A stretch of 64,000 bases of DNA. Origin: an uncultured Thermoplasmatales archaeon. Its GTDB lineage: Archaea; Thermoplasmatota; E2; DHVEG-1. Location of the stretch: assembly GCA_964648565.1 (NCBI GenBank), contig CAZYLG010000001.1, positions 12,315-76,314 on the forward strand. Reading direction: 5' to 3'. The translations under genes were made by a program, and so were the position numbers. The stretch's first letter is position 1. Each line of letters starts with the position of its first letter. Below, piece by piece: positions 47 through 56,815 of the stretch. The notes under the pieces are model-generated. The model worked only from the letters and a program-made list of their open reading frames with translations, did no database searches and was not told where the DNA came from.

Positions 47-376
47 ATGTATTATGTAATATATGACAGTGAAGACAGAATGACATTAGTTTGTACCGAC
101 AAAAAACCCGTTATAGATGAAGATGCTATAGAATTTAGTTATATATATTGGATGGGAACTCTGATTGATGACGATGAAGGTGGACGGGGTAGATTTTCTG
201 GTTCAGAAAAATTTTTTATATTAGTTGAAAGTGATGAAATAAATGAAGAAAATCTTATTGTCACACAAAATTTTGATGAAATAAAAAATAAATTTAGATT
301 GATTGCAAAACATGTTAAGAATAAAGAAGATAGCATAAAGGCTTTTTTTGAAAAGAATAAACATGGTAATCAATAA
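47..376 (+). CDS. hypothetical protein, 109 aa, acidic
   Basis: Open reading frame with ATG start and AT-rich leader. No recognisable motifs. Confidence 0.4.
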   Translation: MYYVIYDSEDRMTLVCTDKKPVIDEDAIEFSYIYWMGTLIDDDEGGRGRFSGSEKFFILVESDEINEENLIVTQNFDEIKNKFRLIAKHVKNKEDSIKAFFEKNKHGNQ

Positions 377-3700: not shown

Positions 3701-6700
3701 GTGGGTATATAGTCGTTAATGAAGACACTACATTTCAAATGATGCATTATTCTGAAACCAGTGGAGATGATAATAGAACATGGGGATTTTCTGACGGGGA
3801 ACCGTATACTCCATATAAAATTCATGCTCAGTTAAAAGCCTGGCAAGTTAATACTTATGATATTACTATTAATAAAACAATAACAACTGAACATAATATT
3901 AATCGTCCTCCAACAATTCATATACAAGAACGACAAGCTCCTGGAGCTGATGCTGGAGGATTTCTAAATGGAAACGGTTTATGGAGTCCAAGAAGAATAA
4001 ATTCTATAGTTATTAATGAAGTAACTGGAGCTTCATTTGATTCTGTAAATTATCAACTAACTGTTCCGGTTGGTCTATACGATTTAGATTGGTGGGCGAA
4101 CGCATATGATGTTAACGGTCACAAAACGAGAATATTTGATGTCACTCATAGTATTACCATCGCTGAAGGTTCTAATGAATATGCAGATACAAGTTACCAA
4201 CATATAACTCGTTCTAGAGGCTCTTTTACCCATCAATTCACTGAAGAGACTGTTATAGAATTACAACATGCAGCAGAAAGTGAATCTGGGGATAATCATG
4301 ACCAAGGTTTTCAAATGGCTAGTAGGTTTAATCCTGTAGAATATGAATTATATGCTGAATTAAAGTTACAGCAAGTCGAAGCATTTGAAATAACTAGAAC
4401 ATTTAATATAACTACTGAAAATAATATTAATCGACCACCTAAATTCCATATCCAAGAACGTCAGCCTAATGATATTAATTCATATGAACCAGCTCCATCA
4501 ACAGACAATACATGGATAACGAGAAAAATTAATACTCATGTATTAAATGAGATTACCGGAGCTTCACTTGATGATGTTGCTCATCAATTTACATTACCTC
4601 CTGGTAAATATGACATAGATTGGAGATGCTCATTATATAATCCAGATTATTTTAATTCAAGATTATATGATGTAACCCATATGAATACAGCTATTCAGGG
4701 GTATGGATCACATAATAATGATCAACATACACTAAGTGAAGGACGTCAAACCATAGAGTTAATTGAAGAAACAACATTTGAATTACAATTTATTGTATCA
4801 GATAACGCCGAAAGTTCATGGATCGGAGGTCACCAATCTGGGAATTCACACCCGTCAATATTATATGAATTATATTCAGATATCGAAATTTTTCAAATTG
4901 AAGAACATAATATTACGATTGATCATACTATAACCACTGAACACAACAGTAATCGTCCACCCCGAGTGCATGCTCAGGAAGTATTACCATATGGTACAGG
5001 TGATAGAAATCAAGGACGAGCTGGACCATTTGATGCCAATGATACATGGACAAGAAGAAGAATAAATATGCTTCGAAGTAACGAAATTAACGGAGTATTA
5101 TTTAGTTCAGATACTGGAAAATTTATTTTTCCAGCTGGTAGATATGACGTCGATTGGTATGCAATATCATATGCAGCATATTCTCACACAACACAATTAT
5201 ATGACTCAACTCATAATGAAGTTCTTGTACAAGGTTCGATGGGGTATAATCATGCTTCGTATCCATCTAATACGTATTCTGTTGGAAGAGGATCATTTGA
5301 ATTAACAGAAGAAACTATTATAGAAATTCGTCATATAGCTGATTCAAGTTCTACAGATTCTCATGCAATGGGAGAATCATACCCTGAGAATGTCATTTCT
5401 GGGTTGGAACAACAAATATATGCTGACGTATTATTCCAGCAAACAGAGGCTCTTGAAATAGTTCAAGAATATAATATTACTCAACAACATAATATTAATT
5501 TTCCTCCAACATTGTTTATGGAGGAACGTCAACCACTTGGTACCGATGCTGGTGATATAACACCAACTTGGAGACCACGAAAATTAAATACTATAATTAA
5601 AAATGAAATTACCGGAGCATCATTAGATACTTCAATAAATTCATTTACATTACCACCTGGTAAATATTTTATCAATTCTATTGCTCCTGCAAGATATGTT
5701 GACTTACATCGTACTCGATTATTTAATGAAACAAAATTTATACAGGAATTAATTAGTGATTCAGTAGAAGGAGATAATGACCAAGGTGGAGTTAGTTTCG
5801 CGCATTTAAGTGGTTATATAGAAATATCAGAGGAAACTACATTCCAGATACAACATAAAAGTAATTACCAAAGAAACGGGGATGGAATGGGTCAATCAAC
5901 CGGTATCGATTCAACATTTTATGATGCTGGATATGAAAAATATTGTACCACATACATTCAACAAATAGAAGAATATACTGTTAACAGAGAAATAGATTTT
6001 AGAACAGAATTTAGTCTCAATTCTCCACCACTGTTTTATGCTGAATATAGAGTAGAAAATGGTCAAAATTCAGAAGAAAGTATTCCGGCCAATACATGGA
6101 CTACAAGATTCATCAACACTCCAGTTACAAATGAAATTACAGGAGCGGAATTAAATAATAATGAAATTACTCTTCCTTCTGGACTATATTGGGTAGAGTG
6201 GTCTGCATTGGCCGGAGATGTAGATAGTCATAGATCAAGATTATATGATGTAACTCATAGTAAAACGTTACTTTATGGTAATTCGATGTTTGCTGAGAAT
6301 AGTTATTGGGTTCAAAATACTAGTGATGGACAAGGTAGAATTTATCTTGATGAAGAAACTATGGTACGAATAGAACATATTATGACTCATGATGGTAGTG
6401 GATCGAGAGCCGGATATAATACTAATTTTATAAGTAGTAGTCATGAAACATATAATTGGATAAAAATTGAAGCTACTGAAATCCATGAGATAACGCGAGA
6501 ATATACTCAGTCACAGGACAACAATATTAATCGACCACCAATATTACACGTGCAACACAGAATGCCGGCTGGCCAACATGGTGGCGCACTAGGTATTCAT
6601 AATGACACATGGTATACAAGACCATTGAATACAATTGTTACTAATGAAATAGAAGAAATATCTGGTACTAGAGCGAAAGCAATTGGAACAGAAGATGTAT

Positions 6701-9700
6701 CTGGGATAATTGATTGGACAGTTAATAATGAAACATTTGATATTGAAGTAAACGGTGGAACTGTATTTACTGTTACATTCACAACTATTACAAATAGTGT
6801 TTTAGAGGTTGTTACTGTTATAAATGATGAGTTTAACAGCCAAGGACTCTCAGATGTAATTCAAGCATATGATACTGGATCTAATACAATAGAAATTAGA
6901 ACAACTGCTATTGGTTCTAATCAAACATTCACATTAATATCAGGTACTACTAACGATGCTTTAACGATATTAGGGTTAACTCCTGGTACGTATACAGGTA
7001 CAAATGTGATAGGAGGATTAAATCCATATACAAATCAATTTACATTAACTGCTGGTATATATGACATCGATTGGAAACTAAATGCATACGGTAGTAATGA
7101 TTCAAATTCACAACTATATGATGTAACTCATGGTACAGTATTATTGTCTGGATCTTCAGAATTTACAAGTACATCATATCAAGCAAGCGTTAAGACATTC
7201 GGACATGGATCATTTGAATTAACAGAAACTACTACATTGGAATTACAACAAATAGTTCAAAGCAATGCGAACACAGATTCAGTAACTGGTAATTCGACAT
7301 CAAGTTATCCGGGGCTTATCCAACATGAAATATATGGAGATGTTTTAATATCAAAGATAAATTCTTTCAATATTAATAGAGAATTTACTATATCTCAGAA
7401 TAATAATATTAATACTCCACCCATGGTGCATCTTGAAGAACGACAACCAGTCGGAACTGAATCCGGTGATTTTGAATCTGGAGTATGGAGAACAAGAAAA
7501 TTAAATACTGTTGTTACAAATGAATTACCTGGAGATTCTAGCGCCACTCCACCTATACCTCCGGCACAATTTGATGTACTAACACATACTCTTATATTAC
7601 CAGCTGGTGAATATTATGCTGATATATGGGCACCAGTATATATAGTAGATAGTCATGTCGCTCGTCTACAAGATGTATCAAACAATACTACATTATTATG
7701 GGGTACTTCAGAATTTGCTCAAGACAACTATTACGTAAGTAACTACTCACATATTAGTGGAAGATTTATATTATCTGAAGAAACATCATTACAAGTTCAA
7801 CATCAATGTCAAGTAACACGTAATAGTAACGGATTTGGTGTAGCCGCAGGAAGCTCAATATCAGGCCTCGATCATGAAACATATTCTACAGCAAAATTTT
7901 GGCAAGTTACTGCTCAAGAAGTAGTTGGACGAGAACTTACGACGATAGAAGACCATTATCGCCCTCCATTATTTTATATTACTGATCAACGTAACGGGGT
8001 TAATGGTGGTCAGGCTTTATCTGGTTGGACACAAAATATAAGAGAATTAAATGTAATACGTACAAATGAAATTAGTGGAGCATCATTGGATGTGGCAACT
8101 GATACGATTACTCTTCCAGCTGGAAAATATTATATTGAATGGTCATGTCCTGCTTATGATGTCGGGTATCATGTTAGTAGATTACATAATCTTACTGATG
8201 CACAAATTTATATGGGAGAAGTAGCTCACTCAGGTGGCACTCAAACTCGTAGTGAAGGATCAACATCGTTCGAAATAATGCATGAATGTGAATTTCAAAT
8301 TGAACATGGTGTCGAATTGGGTGGATCGAACACTCAAGAATTAGGTTCTACAGCTGGTCATGGATATGGAGATGATGTTTATACTACGATAAGAATATGG
8401 CAAACATATGCAGATACAGTTACTCGGACATTAGATTATACTCATAACGTGAATATGCCTCCATTGTTACACATGGAAAGTAGAATCAACGGAAGTGCTA
8501 CTGAAACGACCCCTTCACCAAATGCTTGGAATATAAGAGAATTAAATACTATTGTTGGTGCAAACGAAATTAGTGGAGCATCATTGGATTCTACTACACA
8601 TGAATTTACATTACCTGCAGGAATGTATATGTTTGATGTTATTGTTCCAGCATATAAAACAAATGGATGGAGATCTCGGCTCTATAATGTAACAGCAGAC
8701 ACCACAGCATTATGGGGCACTACTACATATGCTAATGCTACTGGAAATGTAGAAAATAATTCATTTATAAAAGGGCGCTTAGATCTCACAGAAGAGACGA
8801 CACTACGAATAGAATATTATATTAATAATAATGATTCTAGTGCTGCTGGAAACGGATATAATGAAACAAGTGCGATGGGTGCATCATTCTCAACATATGC
8901 CGTAGCTCTTGTGTATGCTATAGAAGTATATAATATTACAAGAGATTTAACGATAGAACAAAACATCAATATACCACCAGTATTCCACGCACGAGAAACA
9001 TATACAGGTACGAATGATTCATATGATCTAGATAATGCATGGGTAACACGACATATTAATTCAGTAGTAAGAAATGAAATTACCGATGCAGCATTAAATA
9101 CATCTGATTATCAAATTACATTACCTGCTGGGAAGTACATGATTGAATGGAAGACATACATGCTTGGACAGGGATGGGGTAAATCTCGAATTCAAAATAT
9201 AGGAACATCTACTACTATAGCAGAAGGTATAGTAGAATCTGGTGGTTCTGCTTCTACAATGAGTCCATCAAAACAAATTATAGAGTTAACTGAAACTACG
9301 ACATTAGAATTACAAAATTATGTAAGTAGCTCTGCTATTGATTTTAATTCGGATACTCCTCCAGTTCCAGGTCCGTATATTTGGGCAGAATTCTATGCTT
9401 GGCAAATCAATACATTAGAAATAAATACAACAGCAACCTATACATATGAAGCTAATACTGCTCCAACATTAATTGTAGAAGAACGTCAACCAGTCGGAAC
9501 TGAATCTGGTGATTTTACATCAGGAAGTCGACAAAGAAGAGTAATAAATTCAGTTATTATTAACGAAATTACTGGAGCTGAATTAGAATTTGATCAACCA
9601 CAAATCACCTTACCTGCTGGGCAATATGAAATATCATTTGAAGCTCAAGCATATAAAGTAGATAGGCATAAAGCATGGTTACACTCTGTAACAAGTGGTC

Positions 9701-9930
9701 TTGATCATATTGAAGGTTCGACGGAGTATGCAGGGAGCACAATTGATGTAACCACATCATCAAAAGGATTTAATAGAGTTATCTTATCACAAAATGAAAC
9801 ATTAGAATTGCAACACGAGTGTGAGACAACAAAAACAACTAATGGGCTTGGAGTCGTAAGTGGTGGTGTATTCTCAACTGTAAATCATGAATGTTATTCA
9901 AAAATAATTATTAAACGGATAGGAGATTAA
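763..9930 (+). CDS. giant fibre-like structural protein, 3055 aa. It has an N-terminal MSFPSSP..W motif, a short collagen-like G-X-Y segment, about 14 tandem ~170-aa repeats, and one inserted module shared with the 1843-aa protein.
   Basis: AGGAG 6 nt upstream of the ATG. An uninterrupted 9.2-kb ORF. Each repeat carries TWxTRxLNT..NEITGASLD..TLPxGKY.I.W..RLYDVTHN..ELQH..NINRPP.FHxQERQ. Repeat starts near nt 2452, 2957, 3462, 3978, 4508, 5041, 5563, 6093, 6603, 7482, 8020, 8522, 9038 and 9525. The collagen-like run GPPGTPGPQGPQGQPG is at 1399..1446. Confidence 0.85.
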   Translation: MSFPSSPVNGQVYGNYEWDESLGAWRDTGGVDIPGIFYGISTGDRSLAGGALIPFQNVVKESTYLTYDDINNIIEIGRDGWYYITYHMTTYIPSGTGDNNSYAWLEIDSGAGYDEVVGSRGGMYNEDASTGTNSTSVEIYQYLNEGDKVRLFASQDSGSQAVWLLGGSTALLIRTVEGVKGEKGEVPEHEWNGSELRFRSSDGTWGSYTDLSGPPGTPGPQGPQGQPGLAAAWTTGSYSYGALVSHNDLLYISTEADNTDEPGTTDTWKQWNPALEMDEMPLGTILPWHESFEAMKNPPRSIGFNGEYKENALQDNSADFNTDGVMVGDIVVNKTDQIFAKVVAKVPHMITLDYDAFPSGGEEYEVYPQAILHPAFEKCDGQTLNDSTSPFDGRQLPNTNSAREFLRGGNLSGVKESDAFQGHEHQVSFSQSSNTYDYYRVDNTYFVLSNDTDTVGIKDKSGYGTARYDVETRPVNMSVIYIIKVRNIDSIRFATEYKVDGDNFHSFTPITQLRPDMEFPVYDPISSTYQKIRLDNFVISKPYLRIEDNKPFGEHGGAVPTTDTWFTRTLNTVYNNEINNSDLSGSLITLPPGRYYIRWKVPGRAILRFTSRILDITHNKVLASGSNEYAHTGYSHSLWSTGETQIELKEDTQLAVQMIAGTNSGNDDLGISMNGDGLNEIGHETYTTFEAWQLHSISETYSTETVNNVNTAPMFHLREEFEPGTSRNLSQNTWHTRELNTERINEVSGATSDLENHTITLPAGRYYFEFNCYSYATNANVCRLQDVTHNITLIEGFTGYSSTSTDVYIQGSGVVELLTESTLELQHAWDNDGGNNEFGVNTTNTMGQRQIHAELKGWQHNAYEITTTLEQHQNINTPPLFQIEHRTDDEISPTDTTNDHTWLPRSLNTTVINETDAILGDNGEFTLTPGKWYIDWFEVGYRTYRWASIIWDKTHGKMALVGAQGYNHTSYSVMTHSNGSGYIVVNEDTTFQMMHYSETSGDDNRTWGFSDGEPYTPYKIHAQLKAWQVNTYDITINKTITTEHNINRPPTIHIQERQAPGADAGGFLNGNGLWSPRRINSIVINEVTGASFDSVNYQLTVPVGLYDLDWWANAYDVNGHKTRIFDVTHSITIAEGSNEYADTSYQHITRSRGSFTHQFTEETVIELQHAAESESGDNHDQGFQMASRFNPVEYELYAELKLQQVEAFEITRTFNITTENNINRPPKFHIQERQPNDINSYEPAPSTDNTWITRKINTHVLNEITGASLDDVAHQFTLPPGKYDIDWRCSLYNPDYFNSRLYDVTHMNTAIQGYGSHNNDQHTLSEGRQTIELIEETTFELQFIVSDNAESSWIGGHQSGNSHPSILYELYSDIEIFQIEEHNITIDHTITTEHNSNRPPRVHAQEVLPYGTGDRNQGRAGPFDANDTWTRRRINMLRSNEINGVLFSSDTGKFIFPAGRYDVDWYAISYAAYSHTTQLYDSTHNEVLVQGSMGYNHASYPSNTYSVGRGSFELTEETIIEIRHIADSSSTDSHAMGESYPENVISGLEQQIYADVLFQQTEALEIVQEYNITQQHNINFPPTLFMEERQPLGTDAGDITPTWRPRKLNTIIKNEITGASLDTSINSFTLPPGKYFINSIAPARYVDLHRTRLFNETKFIQELISDSVEGDNDQGGVSFAHLSGYIEISEETTFQIQHKSNYQRNGDGMGQSTGIDSTFYDAGYEKYCTTYIQQIEEYTVNREIDFRTEFSLNSPPLFYAEYRVENGQNSEESIPANTWTTRFINTPVTNEITGAELNNNEITLPSGLYWVEWSALAGDVDSHRSRLYDVTHSKTLLYGNSMFAENSYWVQNTSDGQGRIYLDEETMVRIEHIMTHDGSGSRAGYNTNFISSSHETYNWIKIEATEIHEITREYTQSQDNNINRPPILHVQHRMPAGQHGGALGIHNDTWYTRPLNTIVTNEIEEISGTRAKAIGTEDVSGIIDWTVNNETFDIEVNGGTVFTVTFTTITNSVLEVVTVINDEFNSQGLSDVIQAYDTGSNTIEIRTTAIGSNQTFTLISGTTNDALTILGLTPGTYTGTNVIGGLNPYTNQFTLTAGIYDIDWKLNAYGSNDSNSQLYDVTHGTVLLSGSSEFTSTSYQASVKTFGHGSFELTETTTLELQQIVQSNANTDSVTGNSTSSYPGLIQHEIYGDVLISKINSFNINREFTISQNNNINTPPMVHLEERQPVGTESGDFESGVWRTRKLNTVVTNELPGDSSATPPIPPAQFDVLTHTLILPAGEYYADIWAPVYIVDSHVARLQDVSNNTTLLWGTSEFAQDNYYVSNYSHISGRFILSEETSLQVQHQCQVTRNSNGFGVAAGSSISGLDHETYSTAKFWQVTAQEVVGRELTTIEDHYRPPLFYITDQRNGVNGGQALSGWTQNIRELNVIRTNEISGASLDVATDTITLPAGKYYIEWSCPAYDVGYHVSRLHNLTDAQIYMGEVAHSGGTQTRSEGSTSFEIMHECEFQIEHGVELGGSNTQELGSTAGHGYGDDVYTTIRIWQTYADTVTRTLDYTHNVNMPPLLHMESRINGSATETTPSPNAWNIRELNTIVGANEISGASLDSTTHEFTLPAGMYMFDVIVPAYKTNGWRSRLYNVTADTTALWGTTTYANATGNVENNSFIKGRLDLTEETTLRIEYYINNNDSSAAGNGYNETSAMGASFSTYAVALVYAIEVYNITRDLTIEQNINIPPVFHARETYTGTNDSYDLDNAWVTRHINSVVRNEITDAALNTSDYQITLPAGKYMIEWKTYMLGQGWGKSRIQNIGTSTTIAEGIVESGGSASTMSPSKQIIELTETTTLELQNYVSSSAIDFNSDTPPVPGPYIWAEFYAWQINTLEINTTATYTYEANTAPTLIVEERQPVGTESGDFTSGSRQRRVINSVIINEITGAELEFDQPQITLPAGQYEISFEAQAYKVDRHKAWLHSVTSGLDHIEGSTEYAGSTIDVTTSSKGFNRVILSQNETLELQHECETTKTTNGLGVVSGGVFSTVNHECYSKIIIKRIGD
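1399..1446 (+). repeat. collagen-like Gly-X-Y triplet run (GPPGTPGPQGPQGQPG) inside the 3055-aa ORF
   Basis: Read directly from the translation. Loose GxY triplets (GEKGEV) precede it at about 1300..1330. Confidence 0.7.
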
Positions 9931-10469: not shown

Positions 10470-10824
10470 ATCTCCGTAATTTTTCGGTAGCTAAGTCACC
10501 CTTAATAATACTTGCCTCATCCTCGAGAATTCGATATAATTCCTCTTGGTCTATTTTTTTGGTCTCTAACTCCACCATCTTATCAACAATGTGAGATACT
10601 TTTTCTACAGTCATATTTTTATTTTTCAACTTATTTAATTCATCACTATATTTATTCAATTTATAGTTTGTATCATACAACAATTGTTTTGCGGATAAAT
10701 AATCTACAATTAATGCTGTTATTTCATTAGTTATATCTACTTCAAGACCTTTTCTATTTTTAATAGATACTTTACCGCCCTCTCGTATCACTCTTTTTAA
10801 TTGTTTAGTAAAATTATCATTCAT
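10462..10824 (-). CDS. hypothetical coiled-coil protein, 120 aa
   Basis: ORF 2 nt downstream of the gp6-like gene on the minus strand. Its stop overlaps the convergent + gene by 8 nt. Confidence 0.45.
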   Translation of the reverse strand: MNDNFTKQLKRVIREGGKVSIKNRKGLEVDITNEITALIVDYLSAKQLLYDTNYKLNKYSDELNKLKNKNMTVEKVSHIVDKMVELETKKIDQEELYRILEDEASIIKGDLATEKLRRFI

Positions 10825-10825
10825 A

Positions 10826-13102
10826 TTATAATTCTTCGAAATATAAAATTAACCCATGTGTTTTATTTTCTATTACTTCGATACCAGACCATTCATCTTG
10901 AGCTAATACTAAAATTTCATTATATTTTGCATTAATTTGAAATTCTACGTTATCAGCTTCAATCGATGCCAATTCTGAATCAGTAATAACGTCTAGAGCA
11001 TTTTGCCGGTATGCATAATAATCTCTTCCTAGATATGTGATTTCAACTAATCGCACTCCAGGATATGACATCATATACGAACTCAATTCTGTTTTAGAAA
11101 TTGATTGCCCAAATGTTTGTTTATTAATGTTATACTGATTTCTTGTATAATTATAAATATTCTCTTTTACAGTGTTCTTCATATTCTTAAATGTATATAC
11201 TGTAGCTACAACATCATATACTCCATATCGAGCGTCTTTAATATGATTATCAACACACAACATTTTTTGATTCTTAATATATTCTAAATACATATTTTCT
11301 TCAGAAGTATTATTCGGATCCCATCCATCAGCATAGTATGTAATGACAGTTTCATCATTTGTAATATTCGAAGTAGATGTAAGAATAATTTTATTAAATT
11401 CCCAATTAATTGTATAATCACTACCTTTTGTATATTTAGTTTGCCCTGTTTTATCATATATTTCAATTGGAAAATTTGGGTATAAACTGTTTAATGAAGT
11501 GTCTAATGTAATCGCATAATCATCAACTGATGAATCATATGCGAATGTGTGAACAACATTTTGTTTATGTTCTTCCCATGTATCATCAAATACATATAAT
11601 ACCCGTAATATTGTTGGTTCTGTTTCAGATGCTGGTGATGGAATTGTACCACCATCAACTGATTGTATTCTTGAAAATGTAGATTCAGATTCATTAATTG
11701 TATAATCTGTATCTTGTATATATGAATCCATGGCTAACCAATCTGTACTTCCAGTATCATAATGAACAACATACATAGTATTACTTTTATTCATTCTATA
11801 TTTTTTTAAATAAATAGTTTGTTTAGATGGATATAATTCTATATCTTCATAATCAACAACATAATGCGGATTATATGTTTTTGATAATCTAAACAAATCA
11901 TTAAATTCTACCGGACTAGTTTCTTCATACCCTTCTCTTAACGGACAAATATAAATCCATGTATCAAGAGGCGGTAAAAAATAACCATATTCTTGAAATA
12001 TAGCTTCTGGCTCATTGTCTTTACTTACAATTGTAGCATGTAATATTGTTGGATTATTTTCTAATTTTATAATATAATCTTCATTTGTAACTGTTTTATT
12101 CGCAGTTCGAAGTTCAAGAGGTGAACGAAATTTTGCAGTTTCTAAATCTTCAGTATCAGATCCTCCTGCTGCTGATTTAGTATTAGTGAATACTAATGTA
12201 ATCCGCTCACCAGCGAGAGTATATGTTTTAGTACTGTTAATTGTATTTGCTGGAATATTCGTATTTGTACCACCACCAACTCTATATGTTACTTGTAATC
12301 GTTCTCCTTTTTTTGGAATTTCAACTAAATTTTCATGTCCATATACGATATCAACAGAATTATCATTATTAACTTCAACACGATATGGTATTGTTTTTAA
12401 TGATTCATCAACTTCATTCTGTTGGGCTTCAGGAGAAATAAATGAATCTACTTCAAGGTGTTCTTTTCCAGTAGTTAATGATGTTATTCGTATAGAACTA
12501 TCAATAATTGGATTCTGTGTAAGAGTAAACCGTTCATTATTAATACCATCTGACCATATATCATCTTCAGTGACTGTTACACCCTGATAAAACGGAACAC
12601 CACTAATATTATAAATTTTATTTGTTTCATCACCACTCTCCACATGATAAACAAAACTATAATTTGGTTTACCGTCATCTGCCATTTCTATACACTCAAA
12701 TGTTGTTATAATACCATTTTTATCAGGTACATCTAGAGTTTCTAATGGATTGAGATTAAAAGGCGGAGTCCATTTTGCTAATTTTAAATTAACACTAACT
12801 CTCGCAGCTGATGGTAGTGGTGGTTTATAATTGATTAGTTTTAATATATTAATTACACTTTCTCTTTTAGTAGCTGTGGAAATAAACATTTCTCTAGCAT
12901 ACCAATCAGTTTTTGCGGCTACTTTTTCTGCGATGTAAGCACTTAACTCCAACAACATCCTTCCAGCATTCGTTTCAAGAAAATCATTCCAATTTTCTAA
13001 ATATTCTGGGTGTTCGGTAATTGAATTTTCTACATCTGTTATAATTGTATTAAAATCTAGTTCTGTATAACTAAATTTAGGTAGCTTTACTAAATTATCC
13101 AT
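10826..13102 (-). CDS. baseplate wedge protein, T4 gp6 / Baseplate_J-like, 758 aa
   Basis: The N-terminal region (NWNDFLETNAGRMLLELSAYIAEK...FISTATKRESV...YKPPLPSAA) follows the pattern of the T4 gp6 N-terminus (W..EFLD..GSRLNVLCDLLAY...ESF..A..R.SV..GY.P.S..A). It lies in the same orientation as the gp25 homologue, separated from it only by the 533-aa endonuclease-like gene. Confidence 0.65.
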   Translation of the reverse strand: MDNLVKLPKFSYTELDFNTIITDVENSITEHPEYLENWNDFLETNAGRMLLELSAYIAEKVAAKTDWYAREMFISTATKRESVINILKLINYKPPLPSAARVSVNLKLAKWTPPFNLNPLETLDVPDKNGIITTFECIEMADDGKPNYSFVYHVESGDETNKIYNISGVPFYQGVTVTEDDIWSDGINNERFTLTQNPIIDSSIRITSLTTGKEHLEVDSFISPEAQQNEVDESLKTIPYRVEVNNDNSVDIVYGHENLVEIPKKGERLQVTYRVGGGTNTNIPANTINSTKTYTLAGERITLVFTNTKSAAGGSDTEDLETAKFRSPLELRTANKTVTNEDYIIKLENNPTILHATIVSKDNEPEAIFQEYGYFLPPLDTWIYICPLREGYEETSPVEFNDLFRLSKTYNPHYVVDYEDIELYPSKQTIYLKKYRMNKSNTMYVVHYDTGSTDWLAMDSYIQDTDYTINESESTFSRIQSVDGGTIPSPASETEPTILRVLYVFDDTWEEHKQNVVHTFAYDSSVDDYAITLDTSLNSLYPNFPIEIYDKTGQTKYTKGSDYTINWEFNKIILTSTSNITNDETVITYYADGWDPNNTSEENMYLEYIKNQKMLCVDNHIKDARYGVYDVVATVYTFKNMKNTVKENIYNYTRNQYNINKQTFGQSISKTELSSYMMSYPGVRLVEITYLGRDYYAYRQNALDVITDSELASIEADNVEFQINAKYNEILVLAQDEWSGIEVIENKTHGLILYFEEL

Positions 13103-14696
13103 TATTGTTTTCCTTTATAAATTTTATATTACCACAATCATATATTCTATACCATCCAACTTCATCCATCATTTGTTTCTCAGTTTTTTCATCAGAATAA
13201 TTATCAAAATTTTTAAGTCTTTGTTTTCTAAAATTATATCTATGGTAAAGTTTCTTTCCATTCCAATAAAAATAGTTTGGGGGTGTATGAGAATCCAATT
13301 CAAAACCCAACTGTTTGTATAAATTACCTTGACTCCACCTTCTATCAGCATAACTATAAATTTCGTTCCATTCCCAATTACGTTCAAAATGTTTAAGCAT
13401 TTTAGAAGCCAAACCTGGGGTATATGTATCTGCGGTAGTAGCAAATCTGCTCAATTCCCATACTTCATTTTTTTTCTTTTGGTTCATAAAAATTCTAGGC
13501 TTAGAGAAAGTCATAACGCCAATAAGTTTATTATCATAGAAAGCCCCTAATTTTATTCTACTTTTATCTTCTCCTTGTATGTGATATTTATTAAGAAAAC
13601 CATTTTTTATTTTTGAATCAATTTCTTTGACTATAGTTTGTCTTGCTCCAATTCTCTGAGAATTGAGACCTAAAATATTCTTTAATCTATTTTTTACAAT
13701 ATGAAACTTATCATTTATTTCATTTTCAAAAATATGAATAAGTTTTATACCTTTGTTATTACATTCCTCTGTTTTTTCTAAATGATAGTTTTTATCTTTA
13801 TATATATCAGAGTGCCAATAAAGACCATCTATTTCTATAGCTAAATTATGATCTGGAAGATAAATGTCTAATTCTTTAGGTGAAATTATTTTTCTATCAT
13901 TTTCTTTAAAAATAACACTATTTTCATTTAAAAATTCTTTAATTAATTTTTCTGTTTTAAACTTTTCACTTTTATTACAATTAGAACAAAATAATCTTTT
14001 ACCTCTTTCTAAATTTGAATAAAATACTTTCTTACATTTTTCACATTTCCATTTATATTCTTTTTTTATATTTAAATATTCATTTTCATCAAATAGAGGT
14101 ATAATATGTAAACCTAATAAATTATTGTAATAATTTGTTTTTTTAATCTTTACATTATTAGATACAACTTTTTTTTGATTCCATGGAGATTTCATTCCAT
14201 ATTTTTTTAAATTAGTTTCTTGTCTTTTAATAGTGGTTTCTTTTAATTTTGATATGTTATTTACTCCATATTTTTTAATCATACCACTTTCTCTTTTATT
14301 TTTATCTCTAAGAATATAATCAACTCCGTATTTTTTTAAATTTGTAGCTTTCGTTTTATTTTTTACATCTTTTCTTTGAGCAATATTTTCGACACCATAC
14401 TTTTGCAAATTTATTTTCTTCATTTTATCTTGAAATTCTGGATCACTTGTTTGACACCTAGCTGAGCAATATTTTCTATATCCTCTTGTAAAACCTACAA
14501 ATGAAACTTTTTTACCACAAACACATTTAGGTTTTTCTGTAATATTATTTAAAAAACAATACAAATTTTCACTTCTATTATTTGATATAAACAATTTATA
14601 ATTTTCTTCAAAAAAATCATTTGCCCTTCTAATAGTACCATTATTAGGACTATCAGTTAAAATATTTTTTAATTCAGCTTTAATTTCACTTATCAT
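13095..14696 (-). CDS. multi-domain endonuclease-like protein, 533 aa. Two zinc-ribbon motifs, an array of four (N/I)LKKYGV repeats, a Vsr/DUF559-like PD-(D/E)XK nuclease core (AIEIDGLYWHS) and a C-terminal domain of unknown function. Likely a free-standing homing endonuclease.
   Basis: Zinc ribbons CVCGKK..YCSARC and CEKCKK..FCSNCN. The KYG(V/M) motif repeats four times about 22 aa apart. IEIDG..H resembles the DUF559/Vsr endonuclease motif. The SD is weak. The gene is inserted between the gp25 and gp6 homologues. Confidence 0.55.
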   Translation of the reverse strand: MISEIKAELKNILTDSPNNGTIRRANDFFEENYKLFISNNRSENLYCFLNNITEKPKCVCGKKVSFVGFTRGYRKYCSARCQTSDPEFQDKMKKINLQKYGVENIAQRKDVKNKTKATNLKKYGVDYILRDKNKRESGMIKKYGVNNISKLKETTIKRQETNLKKYGMKSPWNQKKVVSNNVKIKKTNYYNNLLGLHIIPLFDENEYLNIKKEYKWKCEKCKKVFYSNLERGKRLFCSNCNKSEKFKTEKLIKEFLNENSVIFKENDRKIISPKELDIYLPDHNLAIEIDGLYWHSDIYKDKNYHLEKTEECNNKGIKLIHIFENEINDKFHIVKNRLKNILGLNSQRIGARQTIVKEIDSKIKNGFLNKYHIQGEDKSRIKLGAFYDNKLIGVMTFSKPRIFMNQKKKNEVWELSRFATTADTYTPGLASKMLKHFERNWEWNEIYSYADRRWSQGNLYKQLGFELDSHTPPNYFYWNGKKLYHRYNFRKQRLKNFDNYSDEKTEKQMMDEVGWYRIYDCGNIKFIKENNNG

Positions 14697-14702
14697 AATA
14701 TA

Positions 14703-15065
14703 CTATTCTTGTTTTAATACATTAAATTCTAAAAATCTTTCATCATCAGGTGTTTCTTCTTTTAATTTAAATCCTATAACAACTTTTACTTTATTTTCAT
14801 CAGCTAAATTTTCTATATTTAAATCTAATATATCGACTCTTGGTTCATATAATTCAATTTGTTCGACAATTCTATCTTTTAAGAATCCTACAGTTTCATC
14901 ATCTCCTGGCTCAAATAACATAGAATTAATACTAACTCCAAAATAAGGATTCTTCAATCGCTCATTTTCATTCGTATTAAATAAGCGGCTTATTGATTCA
15001 GAAATTAAATCATGATCTTCTTTTATAATAAAAAAATCATGTCCGTACATTGCTATACCGCGCAT
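14703..15065 (-). CDS. baseplate wedge subunit gp25-like (GPW/gp25 lysozyme-like family), 120 aa
   Basis: NPYFGVSINSMLFEPGDDETVGFLKDRIVEQIELYEPRVDILDLNI aligns with T4 gp25 SRPFDPEFGCDLSDQLFENMTPLTADTVERNIESAVRNYEPRIDKLAVNV. GGAGG lies 8 nt upstream of the ATG. Confidence 0.85.
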   Translation of the reverse strand: MRGIAMYGHDFFIIKEDHDLISESISRLFNTNENERLKNPYFGVSINSMLFEPGDDETVGFLKDRIVEQIELYEPRVDILDLNIENLADENKVKVVIGFKLKEETPDDERFLEFNVLKQE

Positions 15066-15078
15066 TACTAATCCTCCT

Positions 15079-15095
15079 GAATTTATAGTTATCTT
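15079..15095 (-). promoter_or_regulatory. promoter-like motif AAGATAACTATAAATTC (minus strand) directly upstream of the gp25 SD; contains a T4-late-like TATAAAT
   Basis: Reverse complement of the + strand gaatttatagttatctt. A variant of the + strand motif TAAGATAATATAAA[TC] found at 15276, 16947 and 49224. Confidence 0.45.
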
Positions 15096-15129
15096 TTCAT
15101 AAATTCGAATTTATTTACAATTTTTCTTA

Positions 15130-15218
15130 GTGTTCACCAGCTGAACTCAATTTTTGGCTGTTCGTGTGCTGAACCCCACTGTTCGCCAGCTGAACCCTGC
15201 TGTTCGTCTGGTGGAACC
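15130..15218. repeat. array of four GC-rich palindromic repeats (consensus CTGTTCG-N5-CTGAACC, i.e. GTTC-N7-GAAC around a central CAGCTG), phased 21 bp apart in a divergent intergenic region
   Basis: R1 15130..15146 gtgttcaccagctgaac. R2 15158..15175 ctgttcgtgtgctgaacc. R3 15179..15196 ctgttcgccagctgaacc. R4 15200..15218 ctgttcgtctggtggaacc, which has an N8 spacer. GTTC starts fall at 15132, 15160, 15181 and 15202. This is a conspicuous GC island in AT-rich DNA. Confidence 0.8.
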
Positions 15219-15275
15219 TATATAGATATAATATATAGATATATAATAAAAATATACTACTACAGGCGGTGGATG

Positions 15276-15290
15276 TAAGATAATATAAAC
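15276..15290 (+). promoter_or_regulatory. conserved motif TAAGATAATATAAAC, promoter-like and T4-late-like, 8 nt upstream of the SD of the YegP-like gene
   Basis: One of three exact copies of TAAGATAATATAAA in the window. Confidence 0.5.
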
Positions 15291-15308
15291 TATAGTATAG
15301 GAGGTAAT

Positions 15309-15650
15309 ATGGGTAAATTTGAATTATATAAAGATAAATCTGGTGAATGGAGATTTCGTCTTAAAGCTGGCAACGGTGAAATAATAGCGGATTCTGAATC
15401 ATATAAAACAGAAGTAAACTGTTTAAATGGTGTTGCTTCACTCAAGAAAAATGTTTCAGAAACTAGTGCGTTTGAACAATTTCAAGATAAAGCTGATAAA
15501 TGGAGATTTAATATAAAAGCTAAAAATGGTGAGATTATAGCTAAATCAGAGGCATATGAATCAAAAGCAATGTGTGAGCATGGTATTGAATCTGTTAAAG
15601 AAAATGCAGTAAATTCCAGAATAATTTCAGAAGGTAGATTAATAAGTTAG
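15309..15650 (+). CDS. YegP-like (DUF1508/UPF0339) tandem-domain protein, 113 aa
   Basis: Two ~50-aa repeats: KDKSGEWRFRLKAGNGEIIADSESYKTEVNCLNGVASLKKN and DKADKWRFNIKAKNGEIIAKSEAYESKAMCEHGIESVKEN. This is the diagnostic YegP architecture. AGGAGG lies 4 nt upstream of the ATG. Confidence 0.8.
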   Translation: MGKFELYKDKSGEWRFRLKAGNGEIIADSESYKTEVNCLNGVASLKKNVSETSAFEQFQDKADKWRFNIKAKNGEIIAKSEAYESKAMCEHGIESVKENAVNSRIISEGRLIS

Positions 15651-18005: not shown

Positions 18006-21000
18006 ATGTCAATTACTAAAAAATGGTCAACTGGGCCATTAGGAAATGAATATCCAGATCATAGTGAAAGAGGAAACCCTAATACTCGTGGTTTGACTGA
18101 TAATGGTATACCAGGGGTTGAAGGTTATGTTGAAGAAGATCGTGTTGTTGCTTCAGAAGATAATCGACCATTAAAAAATTTAACTCAGAATGATCAAATA
18201 TTAGAAAACAATCTCGTTGATGTAGCATCAGAAGTTGATTATGGAGTATTAAAAGACAAATACGATGAATTTGATTTAGAAATTCAGGAATTAGATTATC
18301 ATCAAGATCCGGAGTCTGATAATCCAGATGACGTTGTTGAAATTACTCCATTACGAATTAAATCTGGTTCCTCATTTATTGATGGACAAGTAACTCGTAC
18401 CGGAAACCAACAGATTATTTATTTCTTACGTGATGACGAGTCATATTTATTTCCAGATTATGATGAACATCAAGGTGAAGTGGTTATCGAGTTGTTTGAT
18501 AAAGATTACTTCGGAGAATACAGACCTGTTTACAATACATTAGCAGAAGAGTTACCTTCGAACTTCACAGATTACGAGATTAAAATAACAAATACTGATT
18601 CTTCTGGATCATTAGAAGATAGAACATCATATTATAAAGTATATCGAGATTGGGAAGATATTGTTCCATATCCACCAGAAGAAGAATCACAATCACAGGT
18701 TCTCGATTTTGAATATGATGCGAATTATGGACAGGATTCAGAAGGTGTATGGCTCAATCCAGAGAATGATGTAATTAATATAAAAGTAAGTGACGTTGAA
18801 GTTAAAAAAAATATTCAAGTATTAGATAAACATCTTCGTCATAACGATTTTAAGTTAAATCCTTCTACTGGTAATTATGAACAAATTCTTATCACTGATG
18901 GTATTTTCTTTGACAACATTCGATGGGATACTTCAGGTGAAGTTGTTGATATACAAGATTTAGTAGTAGATAAAGATGATAATATATTTTTTATTTATGA
19001 TCCTTATAAATTAAATTTAGGTGAAATTGATACACTTTTATTATATAAATTATCTGCTGAATCAGAGCAAATAGATAATATAGAAATTACGAATATTCTT
19101 CCTACAGAAAAACCGATGCGATTAAAATTAATTGATGGTTATTTATTTGTTTTAGGTGAAGGTGCTTTAATCAAATTCTTAGATATTTATGTAAGTTCTA
19201 CTGTTAATGAATTTATTACACCACTTACTGGAGATACAACTCAAACGTTTAAAGATGTTGTAATATGGGATGATACATTGTGGATAGCATCGAATAACAC
19301 ACTATATTATACATCATGGGAAGATTTTAAAACTTCTCCACGACATGCCACTTTTACGACAATTGATTTTGCTTCGGAAATTGAATCTCAAGGTCATGCT
19401 GATACATTAGATTATATTCAAAATATATTTACTCTTAAAGGAAATTATGTTGTTGATTCATCATTAATTCATGATATTGACAATATAATAGATAATCCAT
19501 CATTTGAAGAAGGTGGGATTAATAATCCTCCTACTTCATGGGATGTAACATCAAGTTCTGGAAGTGCTACGTTAAAAGTAGCTAGTGGTAATGCACAAAT
19601 TGGTCAAATGCGAGCTGTACTTCAACCAGCTATTAATGATAATGAAATATCAGTATACCAAGATAAAAAATTCGATTTTGAAACAAGTCAAGATTATACA
19701 TTCTCTATTTATTTAAAAGCATCTACGGATACTGATGTAGATATAATACTATCAGAGTTAGATGACTCTGATGCTATAGTTGATTCTACCACTCAATCAG
19801 AAACCGTAACGGGAAATGATACATGGATTCGATTTTCAGTAACTCATACAGTAACTGATTCAACGAGTGTAAAATTACGAGTAGAAGTGAAGAAAACAGA
19901 TGTTAACGTTCTTCAATTTGACGGTGGGCAATTAGAACTTGGGGCGTCTGTCTCACAATTTGTTCATGGGTATAATTATCTGTTTATTACATTTAGAAAA
20001 AAAGATGATACAACAAATCCACCATTCGCTATTATTGATGAACGAAAAAAATATGATATCCAGTATACTCCTAATTTATATGGGAAAATTCAATCTATTA
20101 ATGATATATTAGATAGAAATCATAATGAAATTTATTTTATTGATGATAGCCATATTTATTCTATGCAACTATTAAATGATGTCGATCATTATGATAGAAT
20201 TAATATAAGTAATCTTTCATCACAATTATTTGGAGATGATTTCAGAGAGAGAGTCAAACAATTATATTCCATCGAAGAATTAAACAGTAGAATTTATATT
20301 GGTGGCACAATATTAAACAAAAATATATCATTTACTATTGATGATGGTGAGACACATACTGTAGAATTATTACATGCAAATGAAGTAACTGGTGGTGGAA
20401 GTTATTTAGATTTTCTTACAATTATTGGCGATTATAATTTTATTCAGGCAAGTGAAAATTCACCAGCAAGAGTAGAGTTTTCAAGAACAGAAGAATTGTA
20501 TGAATCACAAAATCCTACTCCGACAGAAGGATTTTATAGTGCTGAACAAATATATGCATTTGGTATACGAATTGATGACATTGAATATTTAATAAAAGTT
20601 GATTCAGCTCCCCAAGAATTTAATAGTCCATGGTCAATAGAGGACGTATACAATAAAATAGTAACACATACGACATCAGAAGGTTATGATGTATTTAGTT
20701 GGCATTTTGATAATTCTACATTGATTGTTGATGGTTTATATAGTATTGGTATGAATAAACCCACACGATATCTTCGTGGTAACATTAAAAAGATTTTCAA
20801 ACAAGAAAATGCTGAAGAAAAGGATGTTAATGAAAGACATTTATATATAGCTCGTGAAAATACAATTATTCGTTCGAAATATGATCCTAATATTAAAAAA
20901 GTAGGTGATAGTTATCCATCCGAACCAGTAGTACGAGGGTATGTAGATTCGATGGATGATTTACCATCTGATCCAGATAATAATGATGTATATTATGTTG

Positions 21001-24000
21001 AAGGATGGGGATACTTTAAATGGATAGAAAGTACAAGTGAATGGATTGATACTCACTATTTTCATAGATGGGATATATCAGATTCTAATTATGAATTAAG
21101 AGAATTCACAAAAATAGCAAATGAAACTATTACATTTAATGATACTACCCATAATAGATTATTTGTTGATATTCCAGTATCATCAGGATGTGAATTATTA
21201 ACAGGTAGTGTACGATTAAAAATAAATGATGAAACTGAATATGGATTTATAGAAGGCAAGGATTACTTTATAAACTATGAAAACAAAACAGTTATCCGAA
21301 ATGACGGTAAGAATTTACTATCTGATTCTAAATTAGAACATATCGATGACCCTTCAACACAATGGAATATATGGTCGACCCATGATGATCCAGAATTTAA
21401 TTCACTAACAAATGAATTTAATGAAATTTTTGCTGAATTCTATACGGTTAATCAAATAACAGAGTATGTCAACTTCCATCAAGTAGTCGTACCAAATACT
21501 CTTTCTGTCGGCGAAACATTCACGTTTTCAATATATGTAAAATCTAATATAGAATTTACTAGTGGTAATATCAGGTTAGCTGAACGTATTAATTCCGGAA
21601 CAAATAAAAATGATTTATCATTATTTTATGATGATTTTATTGATGGATCGACACAGACATTTTTCATTTCAAATTCAGAATTAGATATTGGTAAATGGCA
21701 TAGAATAGAGGTTACCCATACTATTCAAAATACAGAATCAGATTGTTTACGAGTAGAATTTTATTCTGCACTTAATCATCAAATATTTGTAAAAAATGCT
21801 CAATTAGAAGAAAATCCGTTTGCTACTCCGTATGTGCCTGAGGAAGGGTTTTCAAGAATTGATCCGCAAGATACTGTATATTGTGATTTTATAGAATATA
21901 AAGTATTAACAGAAGGATCAGATTATACATTTAATACTGATGATAATCGAAGAATTTGTTTATTGAATCCAATTGGAAGTAATTCAGAATTATATTTTGA
22001 TTATGAATATGAAAGAATATTTAACCCGTATAAATATGGTAATTCTCTTCCAACATTTGATGTACGATATGATAACCGTGATGATTATTTTCTTTATGAG
22101 AATAGTGGTCGTATTTGGGCGATTAACCAAATATTAGCACTTTTATCATTAGATGAAAGCTTGAATGTTTCATATAAATATCATTATCCTCGAATCGATA
22201 AAATAAAAATTAGAAATATACCTGATAAATATGGAAATTTCTTATATATTGTAAAAGGTGATTTTGATGTTGAAAATCCGTATAGTCCTGGTGATCTAGG
22301 AAATCAACGACAGGTATACGTAGATGGAGTGTATGATGTATCTATTGATGATGTTAACAATGAAGATAATGATGTATTATATGAATTAAATGTTGTGGAT
22401 TTAAATTTTAATAAAAATGATATTTATGATAGAAGAATTTTTATTGATTCTGATACGAGTCCATATTTCAGTATTTCTTTACAGAATGAAACATTAGCAT
22501 ATTTCCCATTCGTTAAAGATTTTATTTCTACAAATGGTATTCATCCATTAAATCAAATTGATGCTTCTCGTATCGTTTCAATTGTTAAAAATTATAGTAT
22601 TCAACAGAACGAAGAAGTTGGAGCATGGGGAACTGATTATCAAATGTCGTTGCGATATAAAGATGGATACCCCGAAAATATTGGTCCTTCTCTTTCTACA
22701 TTTGTTGATAATGATAATGGTAAAGATGATGATCCAGCATATGATGGTACTTCTCAACTCCTTGCATTTAAAACAATCGGAAGAGCTGTAGAAGCTATTC
22801 GAGATGAAGGAGCTCAACCAAATATAGTTATTATTTCTACTTCTACTATTACTGAAGATGTGGAAATTGATTTAACTCAAGAAATTTTAATTAAAGCTAA
22901 AACGTATACCCGTTGGAGAGGCAATTTACAAAATAGAAGTAAAATCACGTTTCAGGGTATCATATTTGAAAATTTCAACTTTTATGCGATAGCAGATTTA
23001 GATTTTTATCATTGTAATTTAGAAGATTCTTCAATTAATAATTATTATCCTCTTAATATTTCGTTATATAATTGTAAAATTTTAGATGCTACAAATACAT
23101 TTTTACGAATAAGTTCACAATTATTTCCAACTCCATTTGCACACCCATATATGAGAAATATTACAAGAGATGATGGTGTCCCTGGAAGTCCAGAATCTGT
23201 AGCGACATCTGACGGTGAGGCAATACATCCAGAGGATTTACAATATAATTTTGAATTGTTTGGTGATCCTATTGGAAATTATACAATGTATCGATGTCTC
23301 ATGAATGGTTTATCAGATGATTTAATCCATTATGATTTAACAAATACACAAGATTGGATTAGCAATTTTGATGTAGAAAAATGTACTATTGTTAACAGTA
23401 AACTTCTCTTTAAAACATCAAAACCAGGTCAATCAATTCTTTTCAATGAATGTATTGTATGGAATAACGGAGAAATACGAAGTGGAGAGAAAAAATATTT
23501 TGATTCACGATCTAACATTGAATTTTTAAATTCATTTATTGATTTTTCAGTCGATCCAGAATTAGTACCAGCTAGTGAACTGAATTTTAATCCAATTGGA
23601 GGTATTTTTGGAAGAGAAACTTGTCAATTTTCAGGACCCAATAAAGATCCTGGATTTATTAGTACTGATGAAGAAACAGAAGATTATCATCTTCGTTCAA
23701 TAGCAAAAGGATTTTTAACAGATTCTGTATGTATTGGAAAAGCATCAGACGGGAAAGATATTGGATGCTATGATGAAATTCGGGAACGAGTTGATTTAGA
23801 CGTACCTAAAAAATTTAAATCTAATTTTGCTTATATAGCAGAATCAATTCATTATCCAATAGTTGTTAATTCAGAAAAAATTACATTCACTGTTGAATTT
23901 AAGCCTACTGAAACATACAACAATACAGGAATTTTATTTGATACTCGATCGGATACTGATGATGATGATTATATTGTATTATTATACAACAATAATACTG

Positions 24001-56453: not shown

Positions 56454-56815
56454 ATGTTCAAATAATGCAATAATGTTTTTGCTTTTAAAGTAGCATAATC
56501 AGGGTATTGTTTCACATATTCACGCGCATCGAGAAAATAAAGAGCTGCTGAACTTTTAGATTTAATGTAAATCATACTCCACCAAAATCTTTCTTCATCA
56601 GACATCTCGGAATTAAATGATAAAAGTACACTTCCATTTTCACATGGAAAATCAAGTGATCCCCCAATAAAGTAACCACCAGCTTTATCGAAAAAAATGT
56701 CTTTTAATACATCTTTATGCTCACCATTGCTACGTGTCTGCATATCATAAGTATGTGTATCTTGCGCGACAGGGGTTTCATCTTTCTGAACAAAAATTTT
56801 CTTCAACAAATTCAA
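56450..56815 (-). CDS. hypothetical protein, 121 aa. The start is uncertain: the track start overlaps the CCA gene stop by 38 nt, and an internal Met at residue 25 (about 56743) would remove the overlap.
   Basis: Its stop overlaps the stop of the convergent + gene by sharing TTAA. Confidence 0.35.
   Translation of the reverse strand: MNLLKKIFVQKDETPVAQDTHTYDMQTRSNGEHKDVLKDIFFDKAGGYFIGGSLDFPCENGSVLLSFNSEMSDEERFWWSMIYIKSKSSAALYFLDAREYVKQYPDYATLKAKTLLHYLNI

Follow-up and report, generated by a model that had tools for sequence, protein, structure and literature searches.

What kind of gene separates the two baseplate genes in the DNA analysed here, and how did it come to lie there? The window, a stretch of 64,000 nucleotides (nt) of contig CAZYLG010000001.1, contains on its minus strand a gene for a 533-amino-acid (aa) protein (13095..14696, ATG start), which is flanked upstream by a gp25/gpW-like baseplate wedge gene (14703..15065, minus strand, 120 aa; Pfam GPW_gp25, E-value 2.5e-14; phrog_261, 3e-20) and downstream by a gp6/gpJ-like baseplate wedge gene (10826..13102, minus strand, 758 aa; phrog_219, 2e-26; weak match to Pfam Baseplate_J, 0.012). 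A preliminary description of this DNA had reported an open reading frame (ORF) of this length between gp25 and gp6, and the ORF and both flanking genes are present in these positions. As described below, the gene very probably encodes a free-standing, Hef-type homing endonuclease (Vsr-like EDxHD) and was inserted precisely into the few-nt spacer between gp25/gpW and gp6/gpJ of an uncultivated giant phage.

Sequence comparison places the 533-aa protein, over its full length, in the known Hef family, whose members are free-standing homing endonucleases of phages. Its residues 33–530 matched positions 50–535 of the 536-position profile phrog_3339, annotated as "homing endonuclease" (1.3e-127), and phrog_559 was also matched. 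The tblastn search revealed full-length matches (33–39% identity over 84–95% of the length) in 424 phage records, usually with several copies per genome and up to 14. The phages concerned include jumbo phages (RaK2, K64-1, and the Lak phages), T4-related phages, and Campylobacter phages, and the Campylobacter matches are annotated as "Hef" or "homing endonuclease". One of them, the Campylobacter phage IBB_35 protein annotated as "similar to Hef [Bacteriophage U5]", is 37% identical to the window protein over 84% of the length (tblastn) and has the same layout with DUF7487 and a Mom-like domain. Scores were obtained for more than 4,600 homologues. The window protein shares no more than 54% identity with any entry of the databases searched. 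Megablast with the 4.2-kb locus as the query returned no match among 50,697 phage records, a collection from which the phage itself is absent.

The preliminary description had regarded the domain combination as non-standard for a homing endonuclease. The layout, which consists of a zinc ribbon, the KYGV repeats (DUF7487), a second zinc ribbon, a Vsr-like nuclease domain, and a C-terminal domain, is instead the standard one of the Hef family, covered end to end by phrog_3339 and common to thousands of proteins. Taylor et al. (2011) assigned Hef-type enzymes to the EDxHD family, which is Vsr-like and has I-Bth0305I as its prototype. Comparison with the Hef and Hef-like proteins of T4-related, ViI-like, Campylobacter, and jumbo phages (for example, F-LimIII/VII/VIII/X of LIMEstone1, the "Hef" proteins of CP220, CPt10, and IBB_35, and the proteins of PHROG 3339) revealed that (i) the full-length architecture and the sequence family are the same; (ii) the genes are likewise free-standing, located between essential structural genes, multicopy, and patchily distributed; (iii) the number of KYGV repeats varies between members; and (iv) the gpW|gpJ junction is a new insertion site, which, together with the uncultivated giant-phage clade, is what is new to this case. 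Hef ("homing endonuclease-like function") was reportedly described by Sandegren et al. in 2005, and the Hef of phage U5 reportedly cuts DNA site-specifically near its own gene. The free-standing T4 endonucleases Seg (GIY-YIG) and Mob (HNH) have the same lifestyle as Hef, in that their genes are inserted between conserved genes of the phage, the enzymes cut close to the point of insertion, and the genes spread when infections are mixed; their catalytic folds and DNA-binding modules are unrelated.

The gp25|gp6 junction was compared in nine lineages. The gp6-like protein has approximately 50 full-length relatives (41–63% identity), and the contigs that contain them reach 732 kb; a search of viral contigs with this protein gave no confirmed relative. 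In the four relatives closest to the window (L001, L002, and L003/L004; gp6 about 59–64% identical), the junction is empty and the 2 genes are 3–20 nt apart. The empty junction of L001 reads GAGGAATAA-TAA-ATGGATAAG, and in the empty-site relatives the Shine-Dalgarno (SD) sequence of gp6 (GAGGAA) is located in the last codons of gp25. The junction is also empty in L009/L010 and in L011 (gp6 45% identical in both cases). By contrast, Hef homologues occupy the same junction in two more distant relatives, L008 (gp6 50%; homologue P0002, 54% identical to the window protein) and L005 (gp6 44%; P0004, 53% identical), and these two proteins are the two best matches to the window protein in the whole protein collection. 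In the gp6 tree, the window nests among the empty-site genomes L001–L003. The junction is thus empty in the closest relatives and occupied in distant ones, and this site-specific but patchy distribution is the signature of a homing element and excludes a conserved structural role. The homing-type insertion proposed in the preliminary description is supported by these comparisons; the gene is not carried by all relatives, as it is absent from the junction in L001–L004 and L009–L011.

At the junction of a further pair of relatives (L006/L007; gp6 50%), an unrelated 85-aa ORF is present (L006 3741–3998; L007 1507–1764). This ORF was considered as a Hef remnant and rejected, as no similarity was found; the gp25|gp6 spacer seems to be a recurrent insertion point. 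In L005, gp6 is split into ORFs of 110 aa and 637 aa just downstream of the Hef gene (2088–4355), which may reflect a frameshift, an assembly error, or element-linked damage.

The junctions in the window are tight. The gp25 stop codon and the Hef ATG are separated by a 6-nt spacer (TATATT), and the 3′ end of the Hef ORF overlaps the gp6 ATG by 8 nt (ATGGATAA); the 8-nt and 7-nt junctions given in the preliminary description are slightly corrected by these values. The 3′ end of the Hef gene (13095..13120, minus strand) holds the SD-like sequence AAGGAAAA for gp6, and its stop codon overlaps codons 2–3 of gp6. The Hef ORF itself has no convincing SD sequence, with ..aacaagaatagtatattATG upstream compared with aggaggattagtaATG for gp25 (gp25 SD, AGGAGGA), in agreement with the weak SD noted before. 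The GC content is 20–22% within the Hef gene compared with 27–32% in the flanks, and nowhere in the neighbourhood is the AT content higher than in this gene. The first 45 nt of gp6 are kept across relatives, and this conserved 5′ end of gp6 is likely the recognition region of the endonuclease. The adjacency of gp25 and gp6, formerly described as that of T4-type baseplate modules, is seen directly in relatives of this phage clade; the T4-type label is loose. W-J-I adjacency is the P2/Mu-type order, and genes 25 and 6 of T4 itself are presumably not neighbours.

The locus was also searched for regulatory and RNA elements. The Rfam scan of 10500–15500 gave no match at E ≤ 1, which, as far as Rfam shows, rules out structured RNAs such as a group I intron in the region of the Hef gene. 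Promoter-like sites in the neighbourhood were no commoner than in shuffles, and no terminator was found; a model in which the Hef gene has its own promoter was dropped on these grounds. No second copy of the gene was found by tblastn of the Hef protein against the 64-kb window, the next match having an E-value of 1.6; the ORF at the place of this match (47..376) has no Pfam match.

The nuclease domain (residues 244–342; 13671..13967, minus strand) contains the residues D277, E288, D290, H295, H305, and E326 and the core AIEIDGLYWHS, which had been read as Vsr-like. This reading is upheld by both sequence and fold. The domain matched I-Bth0305I (PDB 3R3P) in phmmer (2.1e-5), and Foldseek aligned the AlphaFold2 (AF2) model with 3r3p_B (E-value 9.4e-5, template-modelling (TM) score 0.79, root-mean-square deviation (RMSD) 2.6 Å over 97 columns). 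The scores for the Vsr families themselves are below the cut-offs (PF03852, 24.2 bits compared with a threshold of 27; TIGR00632, 22.3 bits compared with 97.85). The AF2 model of the full protein is confident in every domain, with a mean predicted local distance difference test (pLDDT) score of 89.9.

Residue conservation was counted over 46 aligned homologues, in all of which D277, E288, H295, H305, K308, and E326 are invariant. D277 corresponds to D196 of I-Bth0305I and D51 of Vsr, and H295 corresponds to H213 and H69, respectively. D290, which corresponds to N208 of I-Bth0305I and H64 of Vsr, is Asp in 22 homologues, Asn in 22, and His in 2. The window copy keeps D277, E288, and H295, so that the objection anticipated in the preliminary description, a core without catalytic residues on alignment, does not apply. 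H305 (13782–13784 in the window) is placed opposite the metal-binding D222 of I-Bth0305I and D97 of Vsr in the sequence alignment, with a one-residue gap nearby; from the invariant His, the active site of the Hef subgroup may be a variant one. The domain shares the nuclease fold, 27% identity, and the catalytic Asp and His with I-Bth0305I (Taylor et al. 2011), and in both proteins a DNA-binding region, putative in the window protein, precedes the nuclease. I-Bth0305I, however, is an intron-encoded protein of 266 aa with NUMOD2/helix-turn-helix (HTH) motifs and the nuclease at its end, whereas the window protein is free-standing, has zinc ribbons and KYGV repeats, has H305 aligned with D222, and carries an extra Mom-like GNAT domain of approximately 180 aa. 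With Vsr, the nuclease domain shares the core fold and the catalytic Asp/His arrangement; unlike Vsr, the window protein would belong to a mobile element and not be a repair enzyme, and its Pfam Vsr score is below the threshold.

The nuclease domain is preceded by a putative DNA-binding region composed of 2 zinc ribbons and 4 helical repeats. Zinc ribbon 1 (residues 58–81; 14454..14525, minus strand) contains C58, C60, C77, and C81, which are kept in 42–44 of the homologues, and forms β hairpins in the AF2 model; zinc ribbon 2 (residues 213–240; 13977..14060, minus strand) contains C218, C221, C237, and C240, which are kept in 43–44. The Hef family profile also has a weak match to the zinc-ribbon protein mS66. 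The 4 KYG(V/M) repeats between the ribbons (NLQKYGV, NLKKYGV, MIKKYGV, and NLKKYGM; residues 82–183; 14148..14453, minus strand) are spaced 20–23 aa apart and correspond to Pfam DUF7487 (1.3e-14), a family matched by all 46 homologues with a repeat number that varies roughly from 1 to 7. Both Cys4 ribbons and the fourfold array are thus as the preliminary description had them. In the AF2 model, each repeat is a helix followed by a short turn (pLDDT 85–95), and the module is framed by the 2 zinc ribbons. A separate model of the zinc ribbon/KYGV module (pLDDT 85.9) had no PDB fold match at E ≤ 0.001, and the Pfam scan of the window protein at E ≤ 1 found no NUMOD family. By analogy with other phage homing endonucleases, the KYGV repeats may form an extended DNA-binding or DNA-tracking arm.

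The C-terminal domain (residues 351–530; 13107..13646, minus strand) had not been recognised from sequence in the preliminary description. It is, as judged by sequence and by the predicted structure, a GNAT domain of the Mom clade, with a pocket that is largely but not fully conserved. Pfam Mom (PF25680, 7.5e-9) matched residues 355–495 with 36.0 bits, above the gathering score of 27.1, and also matched 30 of the 46 homologues. Foldseek ranked chains A and B of 8bv8 (Mu Mom) first and second (E-value 7e-7; 196–197 aligned columns out of 202–222 residues), ahead of ordinary GNAT acetyltransferases, and profile–profile alignment with the Mom family profile in hhalign gave a probability of 92% (E-value 5.8e-7). 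A plain hidden Markov model search of the PDB sequences with the Hef family profile did not reach Mom, so that profile–profile and structure comparison were needed to see the relationship. No other part of the protein is as conserved as the C-terminal domain. A search of 1.84 billion 50%-identity representatives with this domain gave matches to 15,571 clusters with an E-value of 1e-3 or lower, of which 11,425 reached 1e-10 or lower; the domain is nearly always located at the C-terminal end of proteins of 400–780 aa. In the literature searched, we found no paper linking Hef with Mom or GNAT enzymes, and nothing relevant on DUF7487 or on Vsr-like nucleases with acetyltransferases; the Mom Pfam assignment of such proteins is already present in precomputed annotations.

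Mom of phage Mu has a GNAT fold and catalyses the transfer of glycine from Gly-tRNA to the N6 of adenine in double-stranded DNA. The residues proposed to form its active site are H58, Y59, R111, S124, D149, R151, and Y159, of which S124 is essential (S124A is catalytically dead), and its HTH-like insertion is also essential for activity. Alignment with Mom revealed that five of these seven residues are matched by residues invariant in the 46 homologues, namely H372 (Mom H58), R417 (R111), D451 (D149), R453 (R151), and Y460 (Y159). Y59 is not kept as Tyr (I373 in the window protein; Ile, Leu, or Met in the family), and S124 is not conserved, its place being taken by P427/G428 within a GNAT-like P-G-x-A-S loop. 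The AF2 model has a helical insertion (residues 486–512) before the last 2 strands, in the same place as the HTH-like insertion of Mom and containing the invariant R486 and K491. The C-terminal domain therefore resembles Mom (PF25680; PDB 8BV8) in its GNAT fold, in the helical insertion before the last strands, and in the invariant equivalents of five pocket residues, and differs from it in that Mom is a stand-alone protein of approximately 240 aa, the identity is approximately 17–19%, S124 and Y59 are absent, and the loop carries a canonical GNAT-like signature.

By homology with Mom, the GNAT domain most likely contacts DNA. One possible, though doubtful, extension is that Hef-type endonucleases are bifunctional, in that they cut DNA and also modify it, with the invariant Mom-like GNAT domain flipping out a base at the target or close to it for acylation or aminoacylation from acyl-CoA or a charged tRNA. 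If so, base modification could shield the allele that carries the endonuclease, bias repair, or mark DNA, and a homing-endonuclease family that is among the most abundant in phages would consist of a nuclease fused to a DNA-hypermodification enzyme. An active GNAT domain would change the understanding of how Hef chooses its targets and protects itself, and would offer sequence-targeted base-modifying enzymes. The wider interest here lies in the whole Hef family and not in this locus, since all aligned members have a strongly conserved Mom-like GNAT domain, in which most of the residues recently found to be essential for the tRNA-dependent DNA modification by Mom are kept. The homing element itself is routine; its recognition helps to annotate the baseplate operon of giant phages correctly, and the locus defines an empty and an occupied target site.

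Taken as a homing endonuclease gene, the locus would work as follows. The Hef gene would be co-transcribed with the late baseplate operon and translated at a low level because its SD sequence is weak. In the protein, zinc ribbon 1, the 4 KYGV repeats, and zinc ribbon 2 may lay the molecule along a long DNA site. The Vsr-like domain, in which the fold and the residues D277, E288, and H295 are seen, would then cut near the gp25|gp6 junction, by analogy with the activity of its relatives. In a mixed infection, recombinational repair of the cut, endonuclease-free relative would copy the Hef gene into it, as the pattern of presence and absence suggests, and flanking baseplate sequence would probably be copied along. 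The GNAT domain, homologous to Mom, most likely engages DNA through its basic helical insertion and its Mom-like pocket; it would either contribute to specificity or dimerisation or modify bases itself.

Several observations weigh against this account. The divergence of the Hef proteins among the occupied genomes (50–54% identity) is about equal to that of the flanking genes, so that there is no sign of recent transfer, and an ancient presence with repeated precise loss would fit the distribution equally well as old lateral gains. Cleavage and homing by the window protein are extrapolated from its relatives, and the classical homing model gives no account of a large GNAT domain. The His that the sequence alignment places at the metal-binding D222 position (Vsr D97) in the whole Hef group suggests that the active site is not identical to the characterised one of I-Bth0305I. 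In addition, the window copy has N325 where 43 of the 46 homologues have Asp, and F246 and I327 at 2 other conserved positions of the nuclease domain. These substitutions (S246F, D325N, and W327I), together with the weak SD sequence and the lack of evidence of recent transfer, could be taken to mean that the gene is a decaying and inactive homing-endonuclease remnant that is tolerated between the baseplate genes. This is improbable, given that the ORF is full length, that every domain is modelled with confidence, and that all 28 invariant family positions are kept; the three substitutions are among the 5 deviations found over 106 columns with a conservation of 85% or more, a number in the middle of the family's range.

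The Mom-like domain invites another explanation, in which the Vsr-like domain is accessory and the protein serves the phage, through anti-restriction or epigenetic marking, rather than itself. The score of the domain above the Pfam Mom threshold, Mu Mom as the best structural match, the 5 invariant pocket residues, and the strong conservation of the GNAT domain relative to the rest of the protein all agree with such a role. We nevertheless hold it to be unlikely, because the distribution (patchy, multicopy, and site-specific) is typical of selfish elements rather than of core functions of a phage, the gene is missing from the closest relatives, the essential S124 of Mom is not kept, and the Hef of U5 reportedly cleaves site-specifically. 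The tight coupling of the gene within a late structural operon, with the SD sequence of gp6 embedded in its 3′ end, could also point to a role in baseplate structure or assembly, for which the protein would have been co-opted through the position of its gene in the gp25–gp6 operon. Such a function is extremely unlikely: the gene is absent from the closest relatives with an otherwise identical module, homologues occur in unrelated contexts (beside capsid genes, beside sheath genes, and as tandem paralogues), and every domain that can be recognised is either a nucleic-acid enzyme or a zinc ribbon. A Hef-type homing endonuclease gene is thus the reading that we prefer.

Hef-type genes are found near structural genes in other phages as well. 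In LIMEstone1, the gene of the Hef-like F-LimIII adjoins a baseplate wedge gene. In Yersinia phage phiR1-RT (L015 1021–5514), the Hef homologue g177 is located between the capsid vertex and major capsid genes (gp23/gp24) on the opposite strand, and in IBB_35 (L014 375–5585), 2 Hef genes adjoin a tail-sheath gene that is annotated as 2 coding sequences. Other Hef-type or DUF7487 genes are located in the tail or baseplate regions of related phages (L012 4001–6981, L003 9611–11173, and L009 6314–7366); they include 2 tandem paralogues, P0003 and P0039, and a DUF7487 protein of 350 aa that has no Pfam match to the Vsr-like or the Mom-like domain.

The remaining observations concern the surroundings of the module. 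Adjoining gp25 and divergent from it, the window encodes a 113-aa protein with 2 DUF1508 copies (15309–15650, plus strand; 1.5e-40), and DUF1508 genes are located at the matching spot in the relatives L001, L003, and L004. In L006 (1–3340), L008 (1–1981), and L009 (39–3612), genes of sugar/KDO-type biosynthesis (DAHP_synth_1, CTP_transf_3, TAL_FSA, and radical SAM/SPASM) lie directly upstream of gp25, where the window has different genes. The plus strand of the window contains 4 giant ORFs (763–9930, 18006–28853, 30793–36324, and 49239–54317) of 3055, 3615, 1843, and 1692 aa, respectively. The gp6 relatives are located on contigs of 388–732 kb, so that the window is probably derived from a huge phage. 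ARAGORN found no tRNA gene in the whole 64-kb window, which does encode a 445-aa CCA-adding tRNA nucleotidyltransferase (56778–58115, minus strand) with a PolyA_pol head domain (6e-36), an RNA-binding domain, and an HD domain.

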